Below are positions 4,293 to 17,708 of a DNA stretch of 64,000 bases, piece by piece. Below the pieces are notes generated by a model. It was not told the DNA's origin. It saw only the letters and a program-made list of their open reading frames with translations, and made no database searches. Source of the stretch: Actinomycetes bacterium (GTDB lineage: Bacteria; Actinomycetota; Aquicultoria; UBA3085; Oleimmundimicrobiaceae); assembly GCA_030614255.1 (NCBI GenBank), contig JAUWKI010000002.1, positions 4,449 through 68,448 of the forward strand, given 5' to 3'. The stretch's first letter is position 1, and each line of letters opens with the position of its first letter. The position numbers were made by a program, and so were the translations under genes.

Positions 4293-5751
4293 GCTCCATT
4301 GCCTCCTCGATTCTCTCCAAACATTTCTCTTTCCCTAAAACCGAGATTACATAAAACAACTCCGGGCCGGATATCCTGCCGGTGAGAGCCGCACGAATAG
4401 GATGATAAGTTCCTTTTCCTTTAATATTTTTCATCTTCAATCTGCCGGCAACTTCCTTGAGAAGTACTTTTGCCATGTCAATATCGATTTTGTCCTCTTT
4501 CTCTAAAACTTCCTTGAGTATTTTAAGCACAGTTGGAATCTGCTCGCCTTTTAATATCTCTAAAGCATCCTCACTATAATCAAGCTTTTCTTCAAAGAAA
4601 AGCTTGGCACTCTTTACCACATCAGAGAGGGTCACAAGATTCGTCTGCACCGCTTCCACGACCTTTTCAATCCAAGCAATTTCTTCAATCGAAGGCTCAG
4701 ACGCAATATATCCTGCTTCCTTAAGATAGGGCAAAACCAAAGAAGTTAATTTTTTAAGCGGCAATCGTCTTATGTGCTGGCCGTTTATCCATTTAAGCTT
4801 ATCAATATCGAAGATAGCCGGACTTTTTGAAATCCTGTCTATTGAAAAAGCTTGAATTAGTTCTTGGGGAGTGAAAATCTCTCTACCATCACTGGACGAC
4901 CAACCAAGAAGAACAAGGTAGTTGACGAGCGCGCTTGGAAGAAATCCTTGTTTTCGATACTCTCCTATCGATGTCGCCCCGTGCCTCTTGCTAAGCTTCG
5001 CGTGATCCGGGCCTAAAGCCATCGAATTGTGAGCAAACTTTGGAACCGGATAACCCAATGCCTCAAAGAGAAGGATATGCCTAGCGGAGTTTGCGAGGTG
5101 ATCTTCTCCCCTTATGACATGGGTTATTTTCATGGTTGCATCGTCAATTACAACGGCGAAGTTGAAACTCGCCATTCCATCGGAGCGAATTAAAACGAAG
5201 TCTCCGATAACATCGCTATCGAATTCGACGTCGCCTTTGACCAAATCGTGAACCACAATTTTTCTTTTTGGAATTCTAAAACGTATGGTGGGTTTACGAC
5301 CTTCTGAGATTAAACGCTGCTCATCCTCAGGGGTTAAATTCCTGCAACGCCCATCATATTTCGGCATAACTCCCCGCTCAAGCGCTCCCTTGCGGTTCCT
5401 TTCAAGCTCATCCTCGGTGCAATAGCACCGATAAGCGAGCTCTTTTTCCAAGAGCTCGATGGCCATCTTTTTGTATAGTTCCCCACGTTTGCTCTGATAA
5501 TAAGGTCCGTAGTCGCCGCCAACCTCCGGCCCCTCATCCCAATTCAGCCCCAACCACTTAATATCTTCAATAATGGACTGCTCGTACTCAACAGCTGAAC
5601 GGCTGCGGTCTGTATCCTCAATTCGTAATATAAAAACACCGTTCTGACTCCTAGCAAAGAGCCAGTTAAATAAGACTGTTCTGGATGCCCCTATATGCAG
5701 ATGCCCCGTGGGACTCGGAGCAAACCTTACCCGAACATTTTTCAAAAACAC
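4285..5751 (-). CDS. gltX: Glutamyl-tRNA synthetase (copy 1)
   Basis: 488 aa with HIGH-type motif ([10 protein letters not shown]) and KLSKR. Probable GTG start preceded by an AAGGAG RBS. Confidence 0.95.
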
Positions 5752-5825
5752 ACACTCCTTATAGTCATCAGTTGACAGTCGGTAGTCGGGAGCACATTCT
5801 AATTAAAAAATAAAGTATAAGAATG

Positions 5826-5871
5826 CCCTGCCGGCAGGCAGGAAAAACGATATAGAAAAATTTAAAATGGA
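5826..5871 (-). repeat. Dispersed element R2 copy a: CCTGCC-NN-GGCAGG hairpin plus the 21-mer TATAGAAAAATTTAAAATGGA, in the gltX upstream region
   Basis: The 21-mer at 5851-5871 is identical to 41567-41587. A palindrome of the same type lies 8-13 nt to its left in both copies. Confidence 0.6.
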
Positions 5872-5965
5872 GCAAAATTCTTAAAAAGATCATCTAGAAA
5901 CTTTTTTAATTCTTAATTTTAGTTTTTCGCTTTTCATTCTCCATTTTTCACTTAACTTTACCCTT

Positions 5966-6439
5966 TTATTTTTCCTTTAACAAAACAACCGCTTGAGCGG
6001 CCATGCCTTCGCGTCGTCCGGTAAAACCCATTCCTTCTGTAGTCGTAGCCTTGAGACTTATTTGCGATTTATCAACTTTTAAAACCTTAGCAATTTTTTC
6101 TCTCATTTCCTCCCAATAAGGAGATAGTCTGGGCTCTTGTAAAATCACTGTAACATCCAAATTCTCAACCTTATACCCCTTTGAAAACATAAGCTTCGCA
6201 ATATTCGCAAGTAAGTCTAGACTATAAATGTTCTTATAGTTACTGGAGATATCCGGAAAATGCCGACCTATATCGCCCTCGGCAATAGCACCTAAAATTG
6301 CATCGATGGCCGCGTGGATCAAGACATCGGCATCCGAATGACCCTCCAGGCCTAGGTGATAGGGTATTTCAACCCCCCCTAAAACCAGAGGACGCCCTTC
6401 TATAAATCTATGCGCATCATAACCGATTCCAATCCTCAT
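5966..6439 (-). CDS. ispF: 2-C-methyl-D-erythritol 2,4-cyclodiphosphate synthase
   Basis: 157 aa. [12 protein letters not shown]...GHSDADV motifs are typical of IspF. Confidence 0.95.
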   Translation of the reverse strand: MRIGIGYDAHRFIEGRPLVLGGVEIPYHLGLEGHSDADVLIHAAIDAILGAIAEGDIGRHFPDISSNYKNIYSLDLLANIAKLMFSKGYKVENLDVTVILQEPRLSPYWEEMREKIAKVLKVDKSQISLKATTTEGMGFTGRREGMAAQAVVLLKEK

Positions 6440-7128
6440 TTTGTAAATCCCTTTTTTCTTAAAATCCCCTCTGCCACCTCTAAATCTTCTTGTGTAGTAA
6501 TCTTTATATTGTCGTACGAACCCATAATCATTCTCACCTTATAACCAAGTCTTTCAAGAAGCATAGAATCATCTGTCCCATAAATATTATCTCTCCTGGC
6601 TTTCCCGTGGGCCTCCTTTAAAACAGAGGTTAAAAATACCTGTGGCGTTTGAGCGCACCAAATACTTTCTCTAGGTAGAGTTTTGTCAATACTCTCACCG
6701 CCAACTATTTTCATCGTATCCTTCGCTGGAACGCCAACCACCACACCATCCCAGCCCTCAAGAGAGGATATCGCCTCAACTAGAATTTCTTGGGTTACAA
6801 GCGGCCTCGCCCCATCATGAACCAATACAACTTCCGCCGTTGGAGGAATGAAGCTTAATCCATTGCAAACCGAATCTTGCCTTTCCTCACCACCTTCTAT
6901 TATTTTAGAGACCTTTTTAAAACCATACTTCTCTACGACCTTTTCTCTACAAAACTCCACATCATCTACGTTAACCACAAGCATCACTTCGTCAACCGCG
7001 GAACAATCTTCAAAGACAGACAAGGTATGTGATAAGACCGATTTTCCCAACAAGGGTAGATATTGCTTACTACATCCTGATTTCATCCGGCTACTTTTCC
7101 CCGCCGCGACAATAATGGCTATTTTCAT
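6436..7128 (-). CDS. ispD: 2-C-methyl-D-erythritol 4-phosphate cytidylyltransferase
   Basis: 230 aa. [15 protein letters not shown] and the overlap with ispF are typical of ispD-ispF. Confidence 0.95.
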
Positions 7129-8198
7129 TTGTCCTTCGCCATGCCTTTTTCCTCGTTTTTTAGCTTTGTAAAGATCATTCTTCCCGCCGAAGTCTGTAAG
7201 ACACTCGTCACAAAAACCTTAACTTCTTCGCCTGTGTAAGCGCTTCCACTCTCGACAACTACCATAGTGCCATCCTCTAGATAACCTACTCCCTGGCCAA
7301 CCTCTTTGCCTTCTTTAACGACGTATACATTCATTTCCTCGCCAGGGAGAACCACAGGTTTTAAGGCATTTGAAAGCTCGTTTATGTTGAGAACCATGAC
7401 ACTCTGCAACCCTGCAACTTTATTTAAATTGAAATCATTCGTAATTATGGGCAAATTCATGTCTTTACCCATTTGGACCAATTTCTCGTCAACACCCGAA
7501 GCTTTCGGGTAATCTTTTTCTACTATCTTTACTTTTACGTTTGATCCTCCTTGTAGTTCATGGAGAACATCTAAACCTCGACGGCCTCTGCTCCTTTTTA
7601 GCGAATCTTCTGAATCAGCTATGGTTTGGAGCTCTCTTAAAACAAAAATGGGAACAATCAACTCCCCACTTATAAAACCGGTTTTACAAATATCGGCGAT
7701 GCGTCCGTCTATAATTACACTAGTATCAAGAATTTTTTTTCGGGGAATGAGTGTTTTCCCATGTGCTTTAGGCTGACTTAAGAACCTGAAACTCAAACCA
7801 ATATCTTCCCTCTTTCGCAGCCCAAGCCACATCCCAAGATAGCCTAATATTACAAAGACGAGTACCGCTAAGTAAGGTCCAAATACTGTAACTCTCCAAA
7901 GAGGTAACGATATGAGGGTTGCTAAAATTAACCCAATAATCAAACCGGTAATCCCCACAATAATATCTAGAAGGGGTACTTTTTGAATAGCCCCTTCCAT
8001 CCAATTCAAACCCTTGGCGATCCGTGTGCCGACCGTGCCTCCTATTAAATACCCTACTCCAGCGCCAATTATAATATATAATATGATGCCTATAAACGGT
8101 GACCCCGGGATAGGAAGTTTATAGAAGCTCGCCAGTTCGGCTCCACAAACTGCGCCAAGGAGAGTAAACACCAAACGGATAATAGTAACTAACATCAA
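7125..8198 (-). CDS. yacL: PIN/TRAM-domain membrane protein (YacL-like)
   Basis: N-terminal transmembrane segments followed by PIN-like and TRAM-like regions. Conserved position upstream of ispD. Confidence 0.75.
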
Positions 8199-8344
8199 AC
8201 TCTCCTCCTGCTAATAATCTTTTTTTATATTTTTTTCCTTGCCTCCTTTCTTAAGTTTTCTTAAAAAAATGATAACACAATCTTGAAAACACAGTCAAAA
8301 AGAACATTGTTTAATAAGGATATTTAACAGGGATTTTTTCTTTC

Positions 8345-8374
8345 TTGACAATCAAAATAAATAAAATCTATAAT
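8345..8374 (+). promoter_or_regulatory. Near-consensus sigma-A type promoter: TTGACA, 18 nt spacer, TATAAT
   Basis: ttgaca atcaaaataaataaaatc tataat, about 35 nt upstream of an AAGGGTGA RBS and the ATG at 8410. Confidence 0.7.
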
Positions 8375-8409
8375 GGTTTCAGTCTAAACTATCTATAATA
8401 AAGGGTGAC

Positions 8410-8808
8410 ATGATGAGCGATAGGGTATGTAAGGAATTTCAAGGCACCGTTTCTGATTACTTAATAAGACATAGAAGCATTCTCGATGTAATGTCGAAAC
8501 TTCAAGAAGCAACCGCTCACGTGAACAGAGCGATAACCAAAGCCGTGACCAGTTGTGGGTGTCTAAAAATTGAGGCCTCGAAACAACCAATTCCTAAAGA
8601 AGCAAACTTATCTGAAATAGCAGAATATGTGCGAACTCACCTGGAAGGAAACCTTTGTCCCAACTGCCTTGATACTATCGAGGCTGAATTGGGAAACACA
8701 ATGTTCTACGTAGCAGCCACATGTACCCTTTTAAATTTAGACCTCGAAAAAATTATTACTCATGAGAACGATCGAATTTCCACTCTGGGCGTTTACAGCC
8801 TAACTTAA
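8410..8808 (+). CDS. Small Cys-rich hypothetical protein (C-x41-CGC-x31-CPNC) encoded on the opposite strand inside the radA-disA-yacL-ispDF block
   Basis: 132 aa ORF with a strong promoter and RBS. Possible metal-binding Cys motifs. I do not recognise a family. Confidence 0.5.
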   Translation: MMSDRVCKEFQGTVSDYLIRHRSILDVMSKLQEATAHVNRAITKAVTSCGCLKIEASKQPIPKEANLSEIAEYVRTHLEGNLCPNCLDTIEAELGNTMFYVAATCTLLNLDLEKIITHENDRISTLGVYSLT

Positions 8809-8826: not shown

Positions 8827-8875
8827 GCCATCAGCCATCTGCCACCAGCCATCTGCCATCTGCCATCAGCCATCT
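8827..8875. repeat. Perfectly phased heptanucleotide tandem repeat (GCCATCW)x7
   Basis: gccatca gccatct gccacca gccatct gccatct gccatca gccatct. It is flanked by further 7-periodic spacer (gttaaag gttgaaa gtggaaa ... on the minus strand) up to the disA stop. Confidence 0.85.
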
Positions 8876-8971
8876 AGTTTTTTTGACTCTTGACTAGCGA
8901 AGTGGTTGACTTTTGACTTTCCTTTTACCTTATACCCTTATCTTTACTTTCCACTTTCAACCTTTAACTAA

Positions 8972-10042
8972 TCAGATATATCTTTCCAAAACACTGTGGT
9001 CTCGGAGTCTTTTTAGTCCTTCCCAGATAGCTTTCGCTCTAACCTCACCTATACCCTCAACCTCATCTAAATCTTCTATACTCGCTTCGAGAATAGTCTG
9101 CAAGTCCCCGAATTTCTTTATGATTTTACTCACTATTGTTGCCGGAAGACGTGGAATCTGTCTAAGGAGACGATAACCCCTGGGATGAACAACCTTGTCC
9201 AGAATATTTACAGTATCGCCCTCATATCCAAGTATCCGACATATATTGGTTAAATCCAGCAATTCATCGGAAGAAAGTTCTCCAAGTTCTCTCCCGGTTT
9301 TTTCAGCCCGCCTGCTGTCCTTGCAATAATCTTTTAGAACCATCATATTGTCTTCCTCGACGTGAGCCATAAGCTCATCTAACTGCATCTTTATCAATCG
9401 ACCTTCGGAGCCAAGCTCGCTTATGTAGCGTTCTACTTCATCAGAAACCCTTTTCACCATTTCAAACCTTTGAATAATCGTCGTTACATCCAAGAGCGTT
9501 ACAAAATCCTGAAATTCAAGAGAATTCAAGTTGGAAGAGACCTGATTGAGTCTAACTTTATATTTCTCAAGTGTCTGCAAAGCCTGATTGGCCTTGGCCA
9601 AAAGCGCTCTGATATCTTCGAGCGCATATTTGTAATTGTTCCAATATAATGATATTGCATCCCGTCGCTGTGAAATTGAGACTACTAAAGCGTTGGTCTG
9701 CTTCGCCACCCGCTCAGCGGTTCTGTGTCGCATTCCGGTTTCATCCGTTGTAAGCGTTGGATCTGGCACAAGGTGAATATTTGCACCCAAAATTTTCTTC
9801 AAATCCTCATCTAATACAATGGCACCATCCATCTTGGTTAATTCAAAAAGCTTCTGAGGTTGGAACTCAACATCCAGTCTAAAACCACCATCACAAAGCT
9901 TCCCAACTGCTTCAACATCGCCAATAACAATTAAGGCTCCTGTTTTCGCGCTTATAATTTGCTCCAAAGCATCGCGCACTGCAGTGCCTGGAGCCACCTT
10001 CTTCAAAACATCAATTAAAGTCGTCTTCTTTTTACCGCTCAA
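8972..10042 (-). CDS. disA: DNA integrity scanning protein DisA (diadenylate cyclase)
   Basis: 356 aa with a DAC domain (N-terminal GALIVIG... region) and a C-terminal HhH region. Follows radA. Confidence 0.9.
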   Translation of the reverse strand: MSGKKKTTLIDVLKKVAPGTAVRDALEQIISAKTGALIVIGDVEAVGKLCDGGFRLDVEFQPQKLFELTKMDGAIVLDEDLKKILGANIHLVPDPTLTTDETGMRHRTAERVAKQTNALVVSISQRRDAISLYWNNYKYALEDIRALLAKANQALQTLEKYKVRLNQVSSNLNSLEFQDFVTLLDVTTIIQRFEMVKRVSDEVERYISELGSEGRLIKMQLDELMAHVEEDNMMVLKDYCKDSRRAEKTGRELGELSSDELLDLTNICRILGYEGDTVNILDKVVHPRGYRLLRQIPRLPATIVSKIIKKFGDLQTILEASIEDLDEVEGIGEVRAKAIWEGLKRLRDHSVLERYI

Positions 10043-10059
10043 ACTTCAAACCACCCCAA

Positions 10060-11415
10060 TCATTGATTTAAATATTCCAACGCTTCTTGAACGTTTCTCA
10101 CGGGCAAAAGCTCGATATCTAAACCTTTTTCTTCTATATCGGCATCTTGTGCCGGTAAGATTACCCTCTTAAATCCAAGGCCTGCCGCCTCGGCTAAACG
10201 CTTCTCAACCTGGCCTACAAATCTTACCTCTCCAGCTAACCCGATTTCACCAAAAGCAACTATATCAGCCGGCACCTTTTTATCGAGATAGGATGAGGCC
10301 ACAACAAGCGCAATCCCTAAATCCACCACTGGCTCCACAACTCTTATTCCCCCCGTGATATTCGCATAAACATCGCATTTTTCAAGGTGGAAACCCATTT
10401 TTTTCTCAAGGACCGCCAAAACTAAAGAGAAGCGATTAGAATCTAGCCCCGAGCAAAGACGTCGGGGAAAATTTAAATAAGAGTTAGATGTCAAACCTTG
10501 CAACTCAACAAGAAGAGGACGATTGCCTTCCATCGTAACAACCACAACAGAACCCGGCACATTGGTAGGCCTCTCGGCTAAAAAAAGCGCCGATGGATTT
10601 ACAACTTCCGTAAGACCCTTTGAAGTCATCTCAAATATACCGACTTCATTAGTTGAACCAAAACGATTTTTAACCGCTCTTATCACTCGATAGTTGCGAT
10701 GTGTATCCCCCTCAAAATATAGAACTGTGTCAACTACATGTTCTAATATCTTAGGTCCAGCTATAGAGCCATCTTTTGTTACGTGCCCGACAATAAAAGT
10801 TGGGAGACCCCTCGTCTTAGCCATTCTAAGTAGCCGTCCCGTAAATTCTCTTACTTGGCTTACACTTCCCGGAGCAGAAGAAATATCGGAACAAAACATC
10901 GTCTGGATCGAGTCGATAATGAGAAGTGTCGGATCTATCTCCTCAATCTGACTCGCAATATAGTCAAAATCGGTTTCACACAAAATAAACTGGTTGGGGG
11001 AGAGTTGTCCTAGTCTGTCCGCCCTCATCTTTATCTGTCTGGCCGATTCTTCACCTGACACAATTAAAATTCTATCACCAGATAGTGCCATGTTGTTAGC
11101 GACTTGAAGAAGAAGGGTGGATTTCCCTATACCAGGAATTCCGCCAAGCAATACCAGAGAACCGTTTACAATGCCTCCTCCTAAAACTCTATCAAGTTCC
11201 GGAATTTGCGTCGGGAGGCGCTTTTTCTCTGCACCTTTTACACTGGTTATATCCTGAGCAGGATTAAATGAATTAAAAGCATTGCCTTTTGGGGTCTCCA
11301 TGATGGGCTCTTCAACAATCGTGTTCCATCCTCCACACCCTGGACACCTTCCTAACCACTTCGAGGAAGTATAACCACATTCTTGGCAACGCATTATGGA
11401 TTGAACTTTACGCAT
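10060..11415 (-). CDS. radA: DNA repair protein RadA (Sms)
   Basis: 451 aa with an N-terminal Zn finger (CQECGY...CPGC), a Walker A motif (GGIPGIGKST) and a Lon-like C-terminus. Confidence 0.95.
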   Translation of the reverse strand: MRKVQSIMRCQECGYTSSKWLGRCPGCGGWNTIVEEPIMETPKGNAFNSFNPAQDITSVKGAEKKRLPTQIPELDRVLGGGIVNGSLVLLGGIPGIGKSTLLLQVANNMALSGDRILIVSGEESARQIKMRADRLGQLSPNQFILCETDFDYIASQIEEIDPTLLIIDSIQTMFCSDISSAPGSVSQVREFTGRLLRMAKTRGLPTFIVGHVTKDGSIAGPKILEHVVDTVLYFEGDTHRNYRVIRAVKNRFGSTNEVGIFEMTSKGLTEVVNPSALFLAERPTNVPGSVVVVTMEGNRPLLVELQGLTSNSYLNFPRRLCSGLDSNRFSLVLAVLEKKMGFHLEKCDVYANITGGIRVVEPVVDLGIALVVASSYLDKKVPADIVAFGEIGLAGEVRFVGQVEKRLAEAAGLGFKRVILPAQDADIEEKGLDIELLPVRNVQEALEYLNQ

Positions 11416-14937: not shown

Positions 14938-15462
14938 TCAACCTACCCTTAGAGAACTGTGCTCCTCAATATCCTTAATTTCATCTCTTACTTTGGCGGC
15001 CCTTTCATACTCCTCTTCTTTGACACATACCTTCAAATCATGTCGCAGTCGCACCAGTTTCAATTCCAGCCTAGTTTGCTCATCTAAATGACTTGGAATC
15101 TTGCCCATATGTTCCCCTCTGCCATGGATTTTTTTAAGTAACGGAGAAAGTTTTTTCTCGAACGATTTATAACAATCACTACACCCCAGTCTCCCGCTCT
15201 TACGAAAATCGCTCAATTTTATACTGCACGTGGGACAAGTCATTTCACTCTCCTCCTCAAAATCTTCAAGAAGATAGCTCTCTCCAGGATCAAAGGCATT
15301 ACTTAAAAACTGAGGTAGTTTAGAGAATTCATCTAGAGATAAGAGACTATCCCAAAATTTCTTCGCACAGTCTTCGCATAAGTGAGTTTTTAAGACTCTC
15401 CCATTTATGACTTTAACCATATAAATATAGGGTTTGTTTATGTGACATTCATCGCAAAACAT
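14938..15462 (-). CDS. mcsA: McsA (zinc-finger/UVR-domain activator of McsB)
   Basis: N-terminal CDEC...CEDC and TCPTC...CSDC zinc-finger pairs and a C-terminal UVR-like segment. No ctsR gene or CtsR box lies upstream. Confidence 0.7.
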   Translation of the reverse strand: MFCDECHINKPYIYMVKVINGRVLKTHLCEDCAKKFWDSLLSLDEFSKLPQFLSNAFDPGESYLLEDFEEESEMTCPTCSIKLSDFRKSGRLGCSDCYKSFEKKLSPLLKKIHGRGEHMGKIPSHLDEQTRLELKLVRLRHDLKVCVKEEEYERAAKVRDEIKDIEEHSSLRVG

Positions 15463-15581
15463 GAATTATATCTCCCAAAAAAGTTATCTAAATTCATTCT
15501 ATCACCCGTCGCAGTTTTTAGCCACGCGGCTTCAGCTTAGAAAATTTACGGGTGTTAATGCAGAAATATTCCGACCAGAAT

Positions 15582-17060
15582 TTAACTTTCAGGCCGCATT
15601 TGAGGAAAGAAAATTACTTCCTGAATCGAGTGAGAGTTGGTTAAAAGCATAATCAATCTGTCAACTCCAATACCGAGACCCCCCGTCGGAGGCATCCCAT
15701 ACTCTAACGCCCGAAGAAAATCTTCGTCTATACGCTGGGCTTCCTCATCATCTTCGTTTAATTGTTGCTCAAACCGCTCCCTCTGCTCTAATGGATTTAT
15801 CAGTTCGGAAAAGGCATTGGCTATCTCTCTTCCGGCAACAATTAACTCAAATCTCTCGGTAAGATTCGGGTTATCGGGATGCTGTTTAGCTAATGGGGTT
15901 ATTTCAATCGGATAATCTTTTATAAAGGTGGGTTGAACAAGTTGTCCCTCGACAAGTTTCTCAAAAATTTCCGCAATTATCTTGCCCTTACCAAAACCAT
16001 CTTCTACTTTTATTTGGTGGCGTTTGGCAATAATCTTCAGCTCATCAATTTTCATCTCAAATGAGAGCTTTATCCCTGCAAATTTTTCAATTGCTTCAAG
16101 CATAGTATACTCTCGCCAACCATTGGAAAAATCAAGTTGATTGCCTTCGTACTCAACCATTGTAGATTCATACAACTCTTCAGCAACAGAGCTTATGAGC
16201 TCTCGTGTAAGCTTCATCATATCCTTATAGTCAGCATATGCTTGATATATTTCAAGCATTGTGAATTCGGGATTATGTTTTGAGGACATCCCTTCATTTC
16301 TAAAGTTCCTATTGAGCTCATATACCCTCTCAAGCCCGCCCACAATTAAACGTTTCAGGTAAAGCTCGGGCGCTATGCGAAGATAAAGATCCACATCTAA
16401 AGCATTATGATGAGTAACAAAAGGTTTCGCGGTTGCGCCTCCGGGAATGGGTTGCAACATGGGAGTTTCTACCTCCAGAAAACCTCTTTCATCCAAAAAG
16501 TTTCGTATGGATTTGATTATCTTATTTCGTTTGATAAATAGCTCTTTAACATCGGGGTTTACTACCAAGTCAACATAACGTTGACGATGCCTGATCTCGA
16601 TATCCTTTAGTCCGTGCCACTTTTCCGGAAGAGACCGAAGGGACTTGGATAAGAGTTCAAATTCATCAACCATGATAGATAGTTCTCCGCGACGAGTTTT
16701 AAATGTCAGGCCAGACAACCCAATCCAATCACCGATATCTAAATCGATGAAGAAACGGTATCTTTCTTCTCCCAGCTTGTCTACCGCCAAGTAGAGCTGT
16801 ATCTTTCCTGAGATATCGCTAAGGACAGCAAAACTTGCTTTGCCATGCTTCCGTAAAGCCATAATTCTGCCAGCTACACAAACTTTATCACTTGTATTCT
16901 CACCGGGTTGAATATCTTTGTGGGTCGATATAATCTCAGAAATGTAGTTCGCTCGCTCAAATTTGCCCTTGTAAGGGCTTAGGTTTGAGGAAATCAATTC
17001 TTGTAATTTACGCCGGCGTTGAAGCATTAGTTCATTAAGTTCGAGTTCATTCTCTTCCAT
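15582..17060 (-). CDS. lysS: Lysyl-tRNA synthetase (class II)
   Basis: 492 aa with an OB-fold N-terminus and class II motifs (GGLGIGVDRL). Confidence 0.95.
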   Translation of the reverse strand: MEENELELNELMLQRRRKLQELISSNLSPYKGKFERANYISEIISTHKDIQPGENTSDKVCVAGRIMALRKHGKASFAVLSDISGKIQLYLAVDKLGEERYRFFIDLDIGDWIGLSGLTFKTRRGELSIMVDEFELLSKSLRSLPEKWHGLKDIEIRHRQRYVDLVVNPDVKELFIKRNKIIKSIRNFLDERGFLEVETPMLQPIPGGATAKPFVTHHNALDVDLYLRIAPELYLKRLIVGGLERVYELNRNFRNEGMSSKHNPEFTMLEIYQAYADYKDMMKLTRELISSVAEELYESTMVEYEGNQLDFSNGWREYTMLEAIEKFAGIKLSFEMKIDELKIIAKRHQIKVEDGFGKGKIIAEIFEKLVEGQLVQPTFIKDYPIEITPLAKQHPDNPNLTERFELIVAGREIANAFSELINPLEQRERFEQQLNEDDEEAQRIDEDFLRALEYGMPPTGGLGIGVDRLIMLLTNSHSIQEVIFFPQMRPES

Positions 17061-17089
17061 CGTTGTCTCTCAACAACTCCTTAAGTTCA

Positions 17090-17557
17090 TTATTTAATTT
17101 CCGATATTAAGTACTCCAGCTCCCCGACGGGAACTTGAACCTTCACCTTTTCTCCTGCCTTTTTACCCATAATCGCCATTCCGACAGGAGATTCATTGGA
17201 AATTCTGTGCTCACTAGGGTCTGCCTCGGCGGAGCCAACCAACATGTACTCGATAGTTTCATCGAATTCCAAATCTCGCAAAACCACTAACGAACCCAAA
17301 TCCACTTCATCGGTTCTACTATTATCGCTTATAATTTTAGCATCCTTAAGGATATTCTCTACCTGTTTTATTCGACCTTCGAGAAAAGCCTGCTCATTTT
17401 TGGCATCTTCATACTCAGCATTTTCGCTGATATCTCCAAACTCTATTGCTTCCTTTATTCGTTTTGCAACTTCTCTACGTTTTTGAGTCACCAAATGATT
17501 CAACTCATCCTCAAGTTTTTGGTGGCCTTCTTTTGTCAAGACAACTTCTTTATCCAT
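17090..17557 (-). CDS. greA: Transcription elongation factor GreA
   Basis: 155 aa. The sequence DISENAEYEDAK...VSLVS is typical of GreA. Confidence 0.95.
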   Translation of the reverse strand: MDKEVVLTKEGHQKLEDELNHLVTQKRREVAKRIKEAIEFGDISENAEYEDAKNEQAFLEGRIKQVENILKDAKIISDNSRTDEVDLGSLVVLRDLEFDETIEYMLVGSAEADPSEHRISNESPVGMAIMGKKAGEKVKVQVPVGELEYLISEIK

Positions 17558-17630: not shown

Positions 17631-17708
17631 GTTAAAGTTGTATTATAGAAAAATACTGCCTACCTGTCAAAATAAATCAACCTATCAAGAAAATGACCCG
17701 GAAGAATT

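Follow-up and report, generated by a model that had tools for sequence, protein, structure and literature searches.

A widespread four-cysteine protein family with a predicted MazG-like fold, encoded beside radA and disA

We examined a small gene in a 64,000-nucleotide stretch of an Actinomycetes genome (GenBank assembly GCA_030614255.1, contig JAUWKI010000002.1, positions 4,449 to 68,448; hereafter the window, numbered from its first letter). The gene lies on the plus strand between disA and a yacL-like gene and encodes a small protein that we call Cys4 after its four cysteines. With moderate confidence, we propose that Cys4 is an abundant metalloprotein on a MazG-derived scaffold, that it binds a phosphorylated ligand or partner and is no classical hydrolase, and that its role is tied to RadA and DisA. 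The family has a MazG-like predicted fold, four invariant cysteines, a lost catalytic motif, a conserved genomic position and a conserved promoter; its metal binding, oligomeric state, ligand or partner, and cellular role are what we infer. The coding sequence and its translation signal are as follows.

8410..8808, plus strand: coding sequence of the Cys4 MazG-like protein, likelier from 8413 (dN/dS, homologues and structural model)
8400..8408, plus strand: Shine–Dalgarno-like sequence AAAGGGTGA, recognized by eye from the sequence

The open reading frame (ORF) encodes 132 amino acids. Translation more probably starts at the second ATG, 8413 (131 amino acids, MSDRV…), because all close relatives begin with MSD… and have 131 amino acids. 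As the original prediction made from the sequence had proposed, a good ribosome-binding site precedes the start. Relatives carry GGAGG or GGGTGA at the equivalent position. The ratio of non-synonymous to synonymous substitution rates (dN/dS) against the three closest relatives was 0.015–0.05, with synonymous sites saturated; the gene is genuine and under purifying selection. It had also been described as the sole plus-strand gene in roughly 45 kb, and this held up: among ORFs of at least 120 amino acids between 803 and 45770, the rest read from the minus strand, except for three plus-strand shadow ORFs (12367, 18490 and 38239) nested inside larger minus-strand genes, so that the Cys4 gene is the only credible plus-strand gene of the first ~45.8 kb. 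Scans for tRNA and Rfam features found none near it.

To describe the protein, we combined structure prediction with profile comparisons. An AlphaFold2 (AF2) model built from a 39-sequence alignment (predicted local distance difference test score 86.9) places helices at residues 2–20, 24–49, 84–107 and 112–129, with a small two-stranded insert at residues 50–83, and thus predicts the four-helix bundle of the MazG fold. The top Foldseek matches of this model were all MazG-like. A search of the PDB with the single sequence found nothing, and the window protein matched no Pfam, NCBIfam or PADLOC family above threshold. The family profile matched 5ie9 (E 0.005) and YpjD in the PDB and, among 1.84 billion representative sequences, a genuine tandem-MazG protein with an E value of 9e-9. 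Alignment to a true MazG protein with hhalign gave 94% probability (E 1.3e-7), over helices 3–4 only. MazG-like and MazG were also the commonest sub-threshold Pfam matches among 40 diverse members, none reaching the gathering score, and all four members tried matched phrog_229, ‘MazG-like pyrophosphatase’, down to E 3e-7. The segment identified by these comparisons is given below.

8674..8793, plus strand: residues 89–128 (helices 3–4), the segment with detectable MazG homology (hhalign, PDB profile search, phrog_229 and sub-threshold Pfam matches)

Together, the profile matches and the predicted structure give good support for a remote place in the MazG superfamily, as far as the fold and the C-terminal half are concerned. 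The original prediction had held that a clear match to a known family would remove the novelty of the gene; this came about only in part, as there is a remote tie to the MazG superfamily and neither membership of a described family nor a catalytic motif. Members with N-terminal extensions contained no additional Pfam domain. Two apparent fusions, P0210 (a DisA N-terminus, with a DAC domain, joined to the C-terminal half of Cys4) and P0194 (a PP-loop ATPase N-terminus joined to the same half), are doubtful as natural proteins and are probably assembly chimeras.

We assessed residue conservation in two sets, one of 39 close sequences (A1) and one of 40 divergent sequences reaching 25–30% identity (A2). 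The two cysteine pairs lie at the following positions.

8554..8562, plus strand: codons of the first cysteine pair, C49-G50-C51, closing helix 2 on its C-terminal side; unchanged in 39/39 A1 and 40/40 A2 sequences
8656..8667, plus strand: codons of the second cysteine pair, C83-P-N-C86, at the helix 3 N-terminus (from the alignments)

Both C83 and C86 are present in all 39 close sequences; in the divergent set they occur in 39/40 and 37/40, respectively, and the exceptions are two frameshifted sequences and a third, P0151, that reads CERDQ at the motif. The original prediction had proposed a metal site from the CGC and CPNC motifs. Both are there, and the four cysteines are the only residues invariant across the family, which is compatible with a metal site; Q11, G95, Y100 and L126 are each at 90% or more in the 40-sequence alignment. 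The spacing is C-x-C-x25-H-x5-C-x2-C. In the AF2 model the pairs flank two short paired strands and are placed such that they would come together, one as a knuckle and the other at a helix N-terminus. Weak matches to Zn_ribbon_20, HMA and the rubredoxin-like RUBY_RBDX were also seen. We looked for selenocysteine variants and rejected the candidates: truncated family matches came from frameshifts or from the ends of contigs and showed no clean stop at Cys49.

The magnesium-binding motif of MazG enzymes, EExxE…ExxD, is largely gone. The aligned positions are E/D33 (62%), A/S34, R/K/H37, E93 (60%) and a variable position 96. Since these positions are poorly kept, the canonical catalytic site is not a feature of the family. 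In the subfamily that includes the window protein (at least 50% identity), a charged stripe on helix 2 (D26, K30, E33, R37, R40, K44 and T47) and an RHRS loop are nearly invariant. From the alignments, the old site may therefore have been remodelled to hold a ligand, or may even be active in a non-canonical way. The proteins are acidic (median isoelectric point 5.5), which argues against direct nucleic-acid binding. The C-terminal tail carries a conserved LGx[YF]x[LF] motif, but AF2 confidence is low there.

The promoter of the gene is strongly conserved: both hexamers and their distance are kept while the surrounding sequence drifts.

8345..8374, plus strand: sigma-A/sigma-70 type promoter, TTGACA-18 nt-TATAAT, matching at 12 of 12 positions and identical in the three closest relatives

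This element had been reported in the original prediction, and the promoter scan confirmed it exactly; in the three closest relatives it stays constant and the remaining intergenic sequence varies. A 12/12 match was found in 74% of 133 distinct upstream regions of homologues, compared with 0% of shuffled copies and 0.9% of random 160-mers from the same loci. Counting over 1.62 Mb, with 158 evaluable loci, we found 138 exact promoters less than 300 nt upstream of a homologue, with spacers of 18 nt in 125, spread over several phyla, 17 nt in 10 and 16 nt in 3 (examples with 18 nt besides the window are loci L010, L031, L057 and L084). Only 45 exact consensus promoters occurred elsewhere in that sequence, and 28 of them were the divergent promoter of carD or yacL. 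The spacer length of the homologues' promoters is kept and the spacer sequence is not; the median distance from the end of the –10 hexamer to the start codon is 45 nt. Exact retention of both hexamers and an 18-nt spacing over such evolutionary distances, with the spacer sequence free, is unusual and may be a regulatory feature. We take this conservation as strong evidence for independent, high-level housekeeping transcription of the Cys4 gene. Having its own consensus housekeeping promoter, the gene probably yields an abundant protein.

We then examined how widely the family is distributed. A search of 5.8 billion proteins returned 167 clusters, all of ~130 amino acids. The closest clusters, at 87–89% identity, belong to Candidatus Oleimmundimicrobium (Actinomycetota, class Aquicultoria); further ones come from Anoxymicrobiaceae and, at ~52% identity, Symbiobacteriaceae. 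Another 501 clusters make up a second subfamily, from Clostridia and more divergent. The original prediction had counted an absence of homologues, together with an absence of expression, as grounds against it; when we scanned a single genome for each GTDB species, homologues turned up in at least 572 species. Carriers among the matches listed are basal Actinomycetota, many Clostridia-type Bacillota (Heliobacteria, Syntrophomonadaceae, Tepidanaerobacteraceae, Thermincola, Peptococcaceae and Acidaminococcaceae), Atribacterota and one Armatimonadota metagenome-assembled genome. They are mostly anaerobic or thermophilic lineages, and no aerobic Bacilli are among the matches listed. A search of viral contigs found no relative. 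Judged from this distribution, the Cys4 family is old, widely conserved and not lineage-specific, and loss in the Bacilli would be the simpler history of the gene.

The genomic position of the gene is also widely conserved. We mapped synteny over the 167 fetched loci by tblastn with the window neighbours and one CarD sequence. The immediate neighbours in the window are listed here.

8972..10042, minus strand: disA, the convergent downstream neighbour (Pfam DAC and DisA-linker; synteny)
10060..11415, minus strand: radA, the most constant neighbour of the family (Pfam matches; convergent synteny)
7125..8198, minus strand: YacL-like membrane PIN/TRAM gene, the divergent upstream neighbour (tblastn synteny; Pfam matches of orthologues)

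The usual slot of the Cys4 gene is between (carD-)yacL-ispD-ispF on one side and (disA-)radA-clpC on the other. The downstream sequence was long enough to judge in 130 loci. In 115 of these, disA or radA is convergent with the gene within 2.5 kb; six, all actinobacterial, are co-directional in the order radA-disA-X-carD and still retain the Cys4 promoter. The upstream neighbour, scored in 134 loci, is carD in 71, yacL in 17 and another gene in 46, with metK occupying this place in one Clostridia group. Because the Cys4 gene also occurs without disA and without carD, radA is its most constant neighbour. We know of no gene between disA and yacL on the Bacillus subtilis map. The suggestion in the original prediction of a lineage-specific insertion is refuted, as the same slot, mostly with the same convergent orientation, is occupied in at least four phyla. 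The gene would instead be an ancestral part of a clpC-radA-(disA) / (carD)-yacL-ispDF neighbourhood. Proximity to radA, and to disA where present, suggests a housekeeping role in DNA integrity or stress.

On this basis we outline the following model. Cys4 would be an acidic, cytoplasmic four-helix bundle of 131 amino acids, descended from the all-alpha fold of MazG-type nucleoside triphosphate (NTP) pyrophosphohydrolases. Between helices 2 and 3, a 35-residue insert would carry the invariant site C-G-C…C-x-x-C, which most likely binds metal; zinc is the simplest candidate, and an iron–sulfur (Fe–S) cluster is possible because the carrier lineages are mostly anaerobic. The magnesium site appears to have decayed, and the face of helix 2 that would line the old active-site cleft remains conserved and charged. 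This combination suggests a protein that binds a phosphorylated or nucleotide ligand, or a partner protein, in place of a classical house-cleaning hydrolase.

The locus has several other features. Pfam confirmed IspF, IspD, DisA, RadA, ClpC, McsB, a McsA-like protein, LysS and GreA among the window neighbours. The 357-amino-acid YacL-like protein had no Pfam match at E ≤ 1e-5, and we call it YacL-like because it aligned to syntenic ORFs of relatives bearing YCF81_N, PIN and TRAM domains. In most relatives carD stands between yacL and the Cys4 gene, but no carD is present at the window locus (8199–8409), and none was found anywhere in the 64 kb. It is likewise missing from this slot in loci L005, L007, L014 and L085–L087 and in the Atribacterota loci. 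No ctsR precedes the mcsA-like, mcsB and clpC genes (14941–17557, minus strand); the upstream genes are lysS and greA, an arrangement shared with the Anoxymicrobiaceae locus L003. Elsewhere, L005 has the C-terminal remnant of a transposase (~5700–5880) between yacL and the Cys4 gene, in L001 the reverse transcriptase of a group II intron (10000–10698; RVT_1, GIIM) separates disA from radA, and in the metagenomic locus L090 the homologue (6001–6408) lies directly upstream of, and co-directional with, rpoB (6756 onward) and not beside radA.

Upstream of the Cys4 gene, a second, putative promoter faces the opposite way.

8269..8298, minus strand: divergent promoter candidate for yacL-ispD-ispF as a unit, reading TTGACT-18-TATCAT with TG and matching at 10 of 12 positions

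This candidate stands back to back with the Cys4 promoter, and its –35 region is conserved in close relatives. An exact TTGACA-N17/18-TATAAT also stands before carD, or before yacL at loci lacking carD, in 28 cases, back to back with that of the homologue; such promoters lie ~100–140 nt upstream of carD in L031, L039, L042, L044, L047, L065, L083, L084, L147, L148 and others. Between the two window promoters is a 13-nt direct repeat, TTTAACAAGGATA (2.2 copies, 8310–8338), whose second copy, GATATTTAACAGGGA, is kept in close relatives. The sole other exact consensus promoter of the window (17642–17670, minus strand, 17-nt spacer) lies upstream of greA (17557..17090). DNA between divergent promoters is expected to be negatively supercoiled. 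Long promoter spacers are favoured under strongly negative supercoiling (Forquet et al., PMC9303308). We regard the connection between the 18-nt spacer and supercoiling as a lead, not a result.

Downstream, the stop-to-stop gap between the Cys4 gene and disA is 163 bp and contains two repetitive elements.

8827..8875, plus strand: (GCCATCW)~7 tandem array in the 3′ untranslated region and convergent gap (Tandem Repeats Finder (TRF); pattern count)
8883..8918, plus strand: four TTGACT copies in two 7-nt tandem pairs (sequence; TRF at 8906–8920, period 7)

The original prediction had transcription toward disA meeting the array. The array itself is real (TRF 6.9 copies, score 68–84; six pattern matches where 0.09 are expected), but it is confined to this genome: L005, L085 and L086, the three closest relatives, lack it in their gaps of 55–122 bp. 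It is a genome-specific simple repeat in a repeat-prone region. The array is C-rich and G-poor on the Cys4 strand (C/G 3.1), and we considered it as a loading (rut) site for Rho; this case is weak, as the whole strand is C-rich and the array's excess of C over G is only at its 98th percentile. On neither strand did the window gap fold significantly, and no terminator-like site was seen in it. Across the family the median stop-to-stop gap to disA or radA is ~78 bp, falling to 26 bp or less in at least 12 loci; ~39% of relatives' gaps contain strong hairpins, some of them classic bidirectional terminators (L083). In the gene–radA gaps of L082, L072 and L040, from unrelated lineages, heptamer-like tandem repeats (GGGATTA, GGGAACA and GAGGTCG) occur with their complements and fold as very stable long hairpins (z –5 to –8). 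On the minus strand the TTGACT copies read AGTCAAA or AGTCAAC; these resemble CtsR half-sites, but with a period of 7 nt and not 10 nt.

Several of our findings weigh against the model. Nine of the 130 loci have neither the convergent nor the co-directional arrangement, with no radA or disA close by. The gene persists without disA in Atribacterota and Tepidanaerobacteraceae, and without carD in several loci, including the window and its nearest relatives. Its position may reflect inheritance within a very stable housekeeping block and not function. The N-terminal half resembles MazG by fold only, not by sequence. In addition, the acidic residues E33, D/E88, E91, E93 and E119 are nearly invariant in the window subfamily, at 92–100%. 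These residues could form a rearranged acidic site, in which case Cys4 would be an active nucleotide pyrophosphohydrolase with the cysteines holding a structural zinc; it would sanitize the dNTP pool alongside radA and disA, as a house-cleaning enzyme or a hydrolase of signalling nucleotides. The MazG-like fold and helix 3–4 sequence fit such an enzyme, conserved basic residues (R20, R22, K30, R40 and K44) could hold phosphates, and one JGI record names a member as a MazG-superfamily NTP pyrophosphatase. Across the whole family, however, the acidic positions are kept in only 60–88% of sequences, whereas the cysteines are invariant, and two of the three EExxE positions and the aspartate of ExxD are never or rarely acidic. 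We consider an active enzyme possible but unlikely.

The original prediction had suggested a small regulator or redox protein, which is possible. In a different reading of the same invariant cysteines, they form a thiol or Fe–S sensor of redox state or oxygen, whose condition would decide how the protein acts on RadA, DisA, CarD or RNA polymerase as its partner. The mostly anaerobic or thermophilic carriers, with aerobic Bacilli not seen among the matches listed, would suit this role, as would the divergent promoter region that the gene shares with carD in 71 of the 134 loci, and the conserved low-confidence tail could be a docking motif. But no selenocysteine-for-cysteine variants were found, the protein has neither a DNA-binding nor a known sensor domain, the motif spacing is unlike that of ZAS (Hx3Cx2C) or Wbl proteins, and there is no evidence for any partner; we find this improbable. 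It is very unlikely that the locus is chiefly transcriptional, with a strong promoter facing the end of the clpC-radA-disA operon to provide antisense transcription, collision or insulation and with the protein secondary. The prevalent convergence, the very short gaps, and the perfect promoter and terminator-free gap of the window could be explained in this way, but the protein is under strong purifying selection and retains 50% identity across phyla, the six co-directional loci keep the promoter, and many gaps contain strong hairpins. A further proposal, that Cys4 belongs to the DUF1573 family (PF07610), is practically refuted. DUF1573 is a beta-rich domain, and the predicted fold of Cys4 is all-alpha and MazG-like. 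The window protein does match PF07610 locally (residues 41–67), on a …TSCGC… stretch, and NCBI records carry that name; the match scores 20.4 bits against a gathering cut-off of 26.1, covers 27 of 98 profile positions (34–60) and recurs at E ≤ 1 in only 5 of 40 members. Our preferred model of a non-hydrolytic, ligand-binding Cys4 metalloprotein can also be taken further, to an abundant zinc or Fe–S switch on a catalytically dead MazG scaffold that controls RadA, and DisA where there is one, at a level tied to supercoiling. This is a long shot. If true, Cys4 would be a missing regulator of the DNA-integrity and cyclic di-AMP (c-di-AMP) module in anaerobic Terrabacteria, and the 18-nt-spacer consensus promoter would couple its level to the negative supercoiling that divergent transcription creates locally.

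RadA and DisA hold central places in the recombination repair and c-di-AMP signalling of Gram-positive bacteria, and to our knowledge their regulation is poorly known beyond Bacillus and mycobacteria. An unnamed, strongly promoted family that lies tail-to-tail with radA and disA in hundreds of species of several phyla is therefore a well-defined and inexpensive subject for experiments. Literature searches for a named protein in the radA/disA slot returned nothing relevant. In databases the family appears only as ‘hypothetical’ or under the mistaken name DUF1573; the local …TSCGC… match accounts for the label ‘DUF1573 domain-containing protein’ on many NCBI homologues. Our analysis corrects this propagated annotation and adds a Cys4-bearing, probably non-catalytic branch to the MazG superfamily.

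Compared with known systems, Cys4 has relatives in fold and analogues in function. Small cytoplasmic cysteine-based switches of Gram-positive bacteria linked to stress genes (clpC, mcsAB) include Spx, the ZAS anti-sigma factor RsrA and WhiB-like proteins. Their likeness to Cys4 is a functional analogy only, with no relation in sequence or fold: the protein lacks both the ZAS motif and the Wbl motif (Cx(n)Cx2Cx5C), and no sigma-factor gene lies beside it in the loci with listed neighbours. DUF1573 shares a short S-C-G-C-like motif with Cys4 but differs in predicted fold. Reviews (PMC9312934, PMC13188914) list a selenoprotein form of DUF1573 that has a UGC motif, whereas no selenocysteine variants turned up in the Cys4 family. 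Mammalian dCTPase DCTPP1 (RS21-C6) and the phosphoribosyl-ATP pyrophosphatase HisE have the superfamily fold in common with Cys4 at 7–16% identity; both are active, retain the acidic motifs in full and lack a cluster of cysteines. The nearest counterparts are the small single-domain MazG-like NTP pyrophosphohydrolases, namely B. subtilis YpjD (2gta), the Bacillus-conserved MazG (5ie9), Sulfolobus SSO3215 (1vmg) and the integron iMazG (2q5z). In contrast to these enzymes, the Cys4 family lacks the EExxE…ExxD magnesium site, carries the ~35-residue insert with its invariant cysteines between helices 2 and 3, and has a fixed gene context beside radA and disA. It is best described as a new, uncharacterized variant of the MazG superfamily, distinguished by the insert with its four cysteines, the decay of the catalytic motif, a genomic partner that stays fixed and an unusually conserved consensus promoter.
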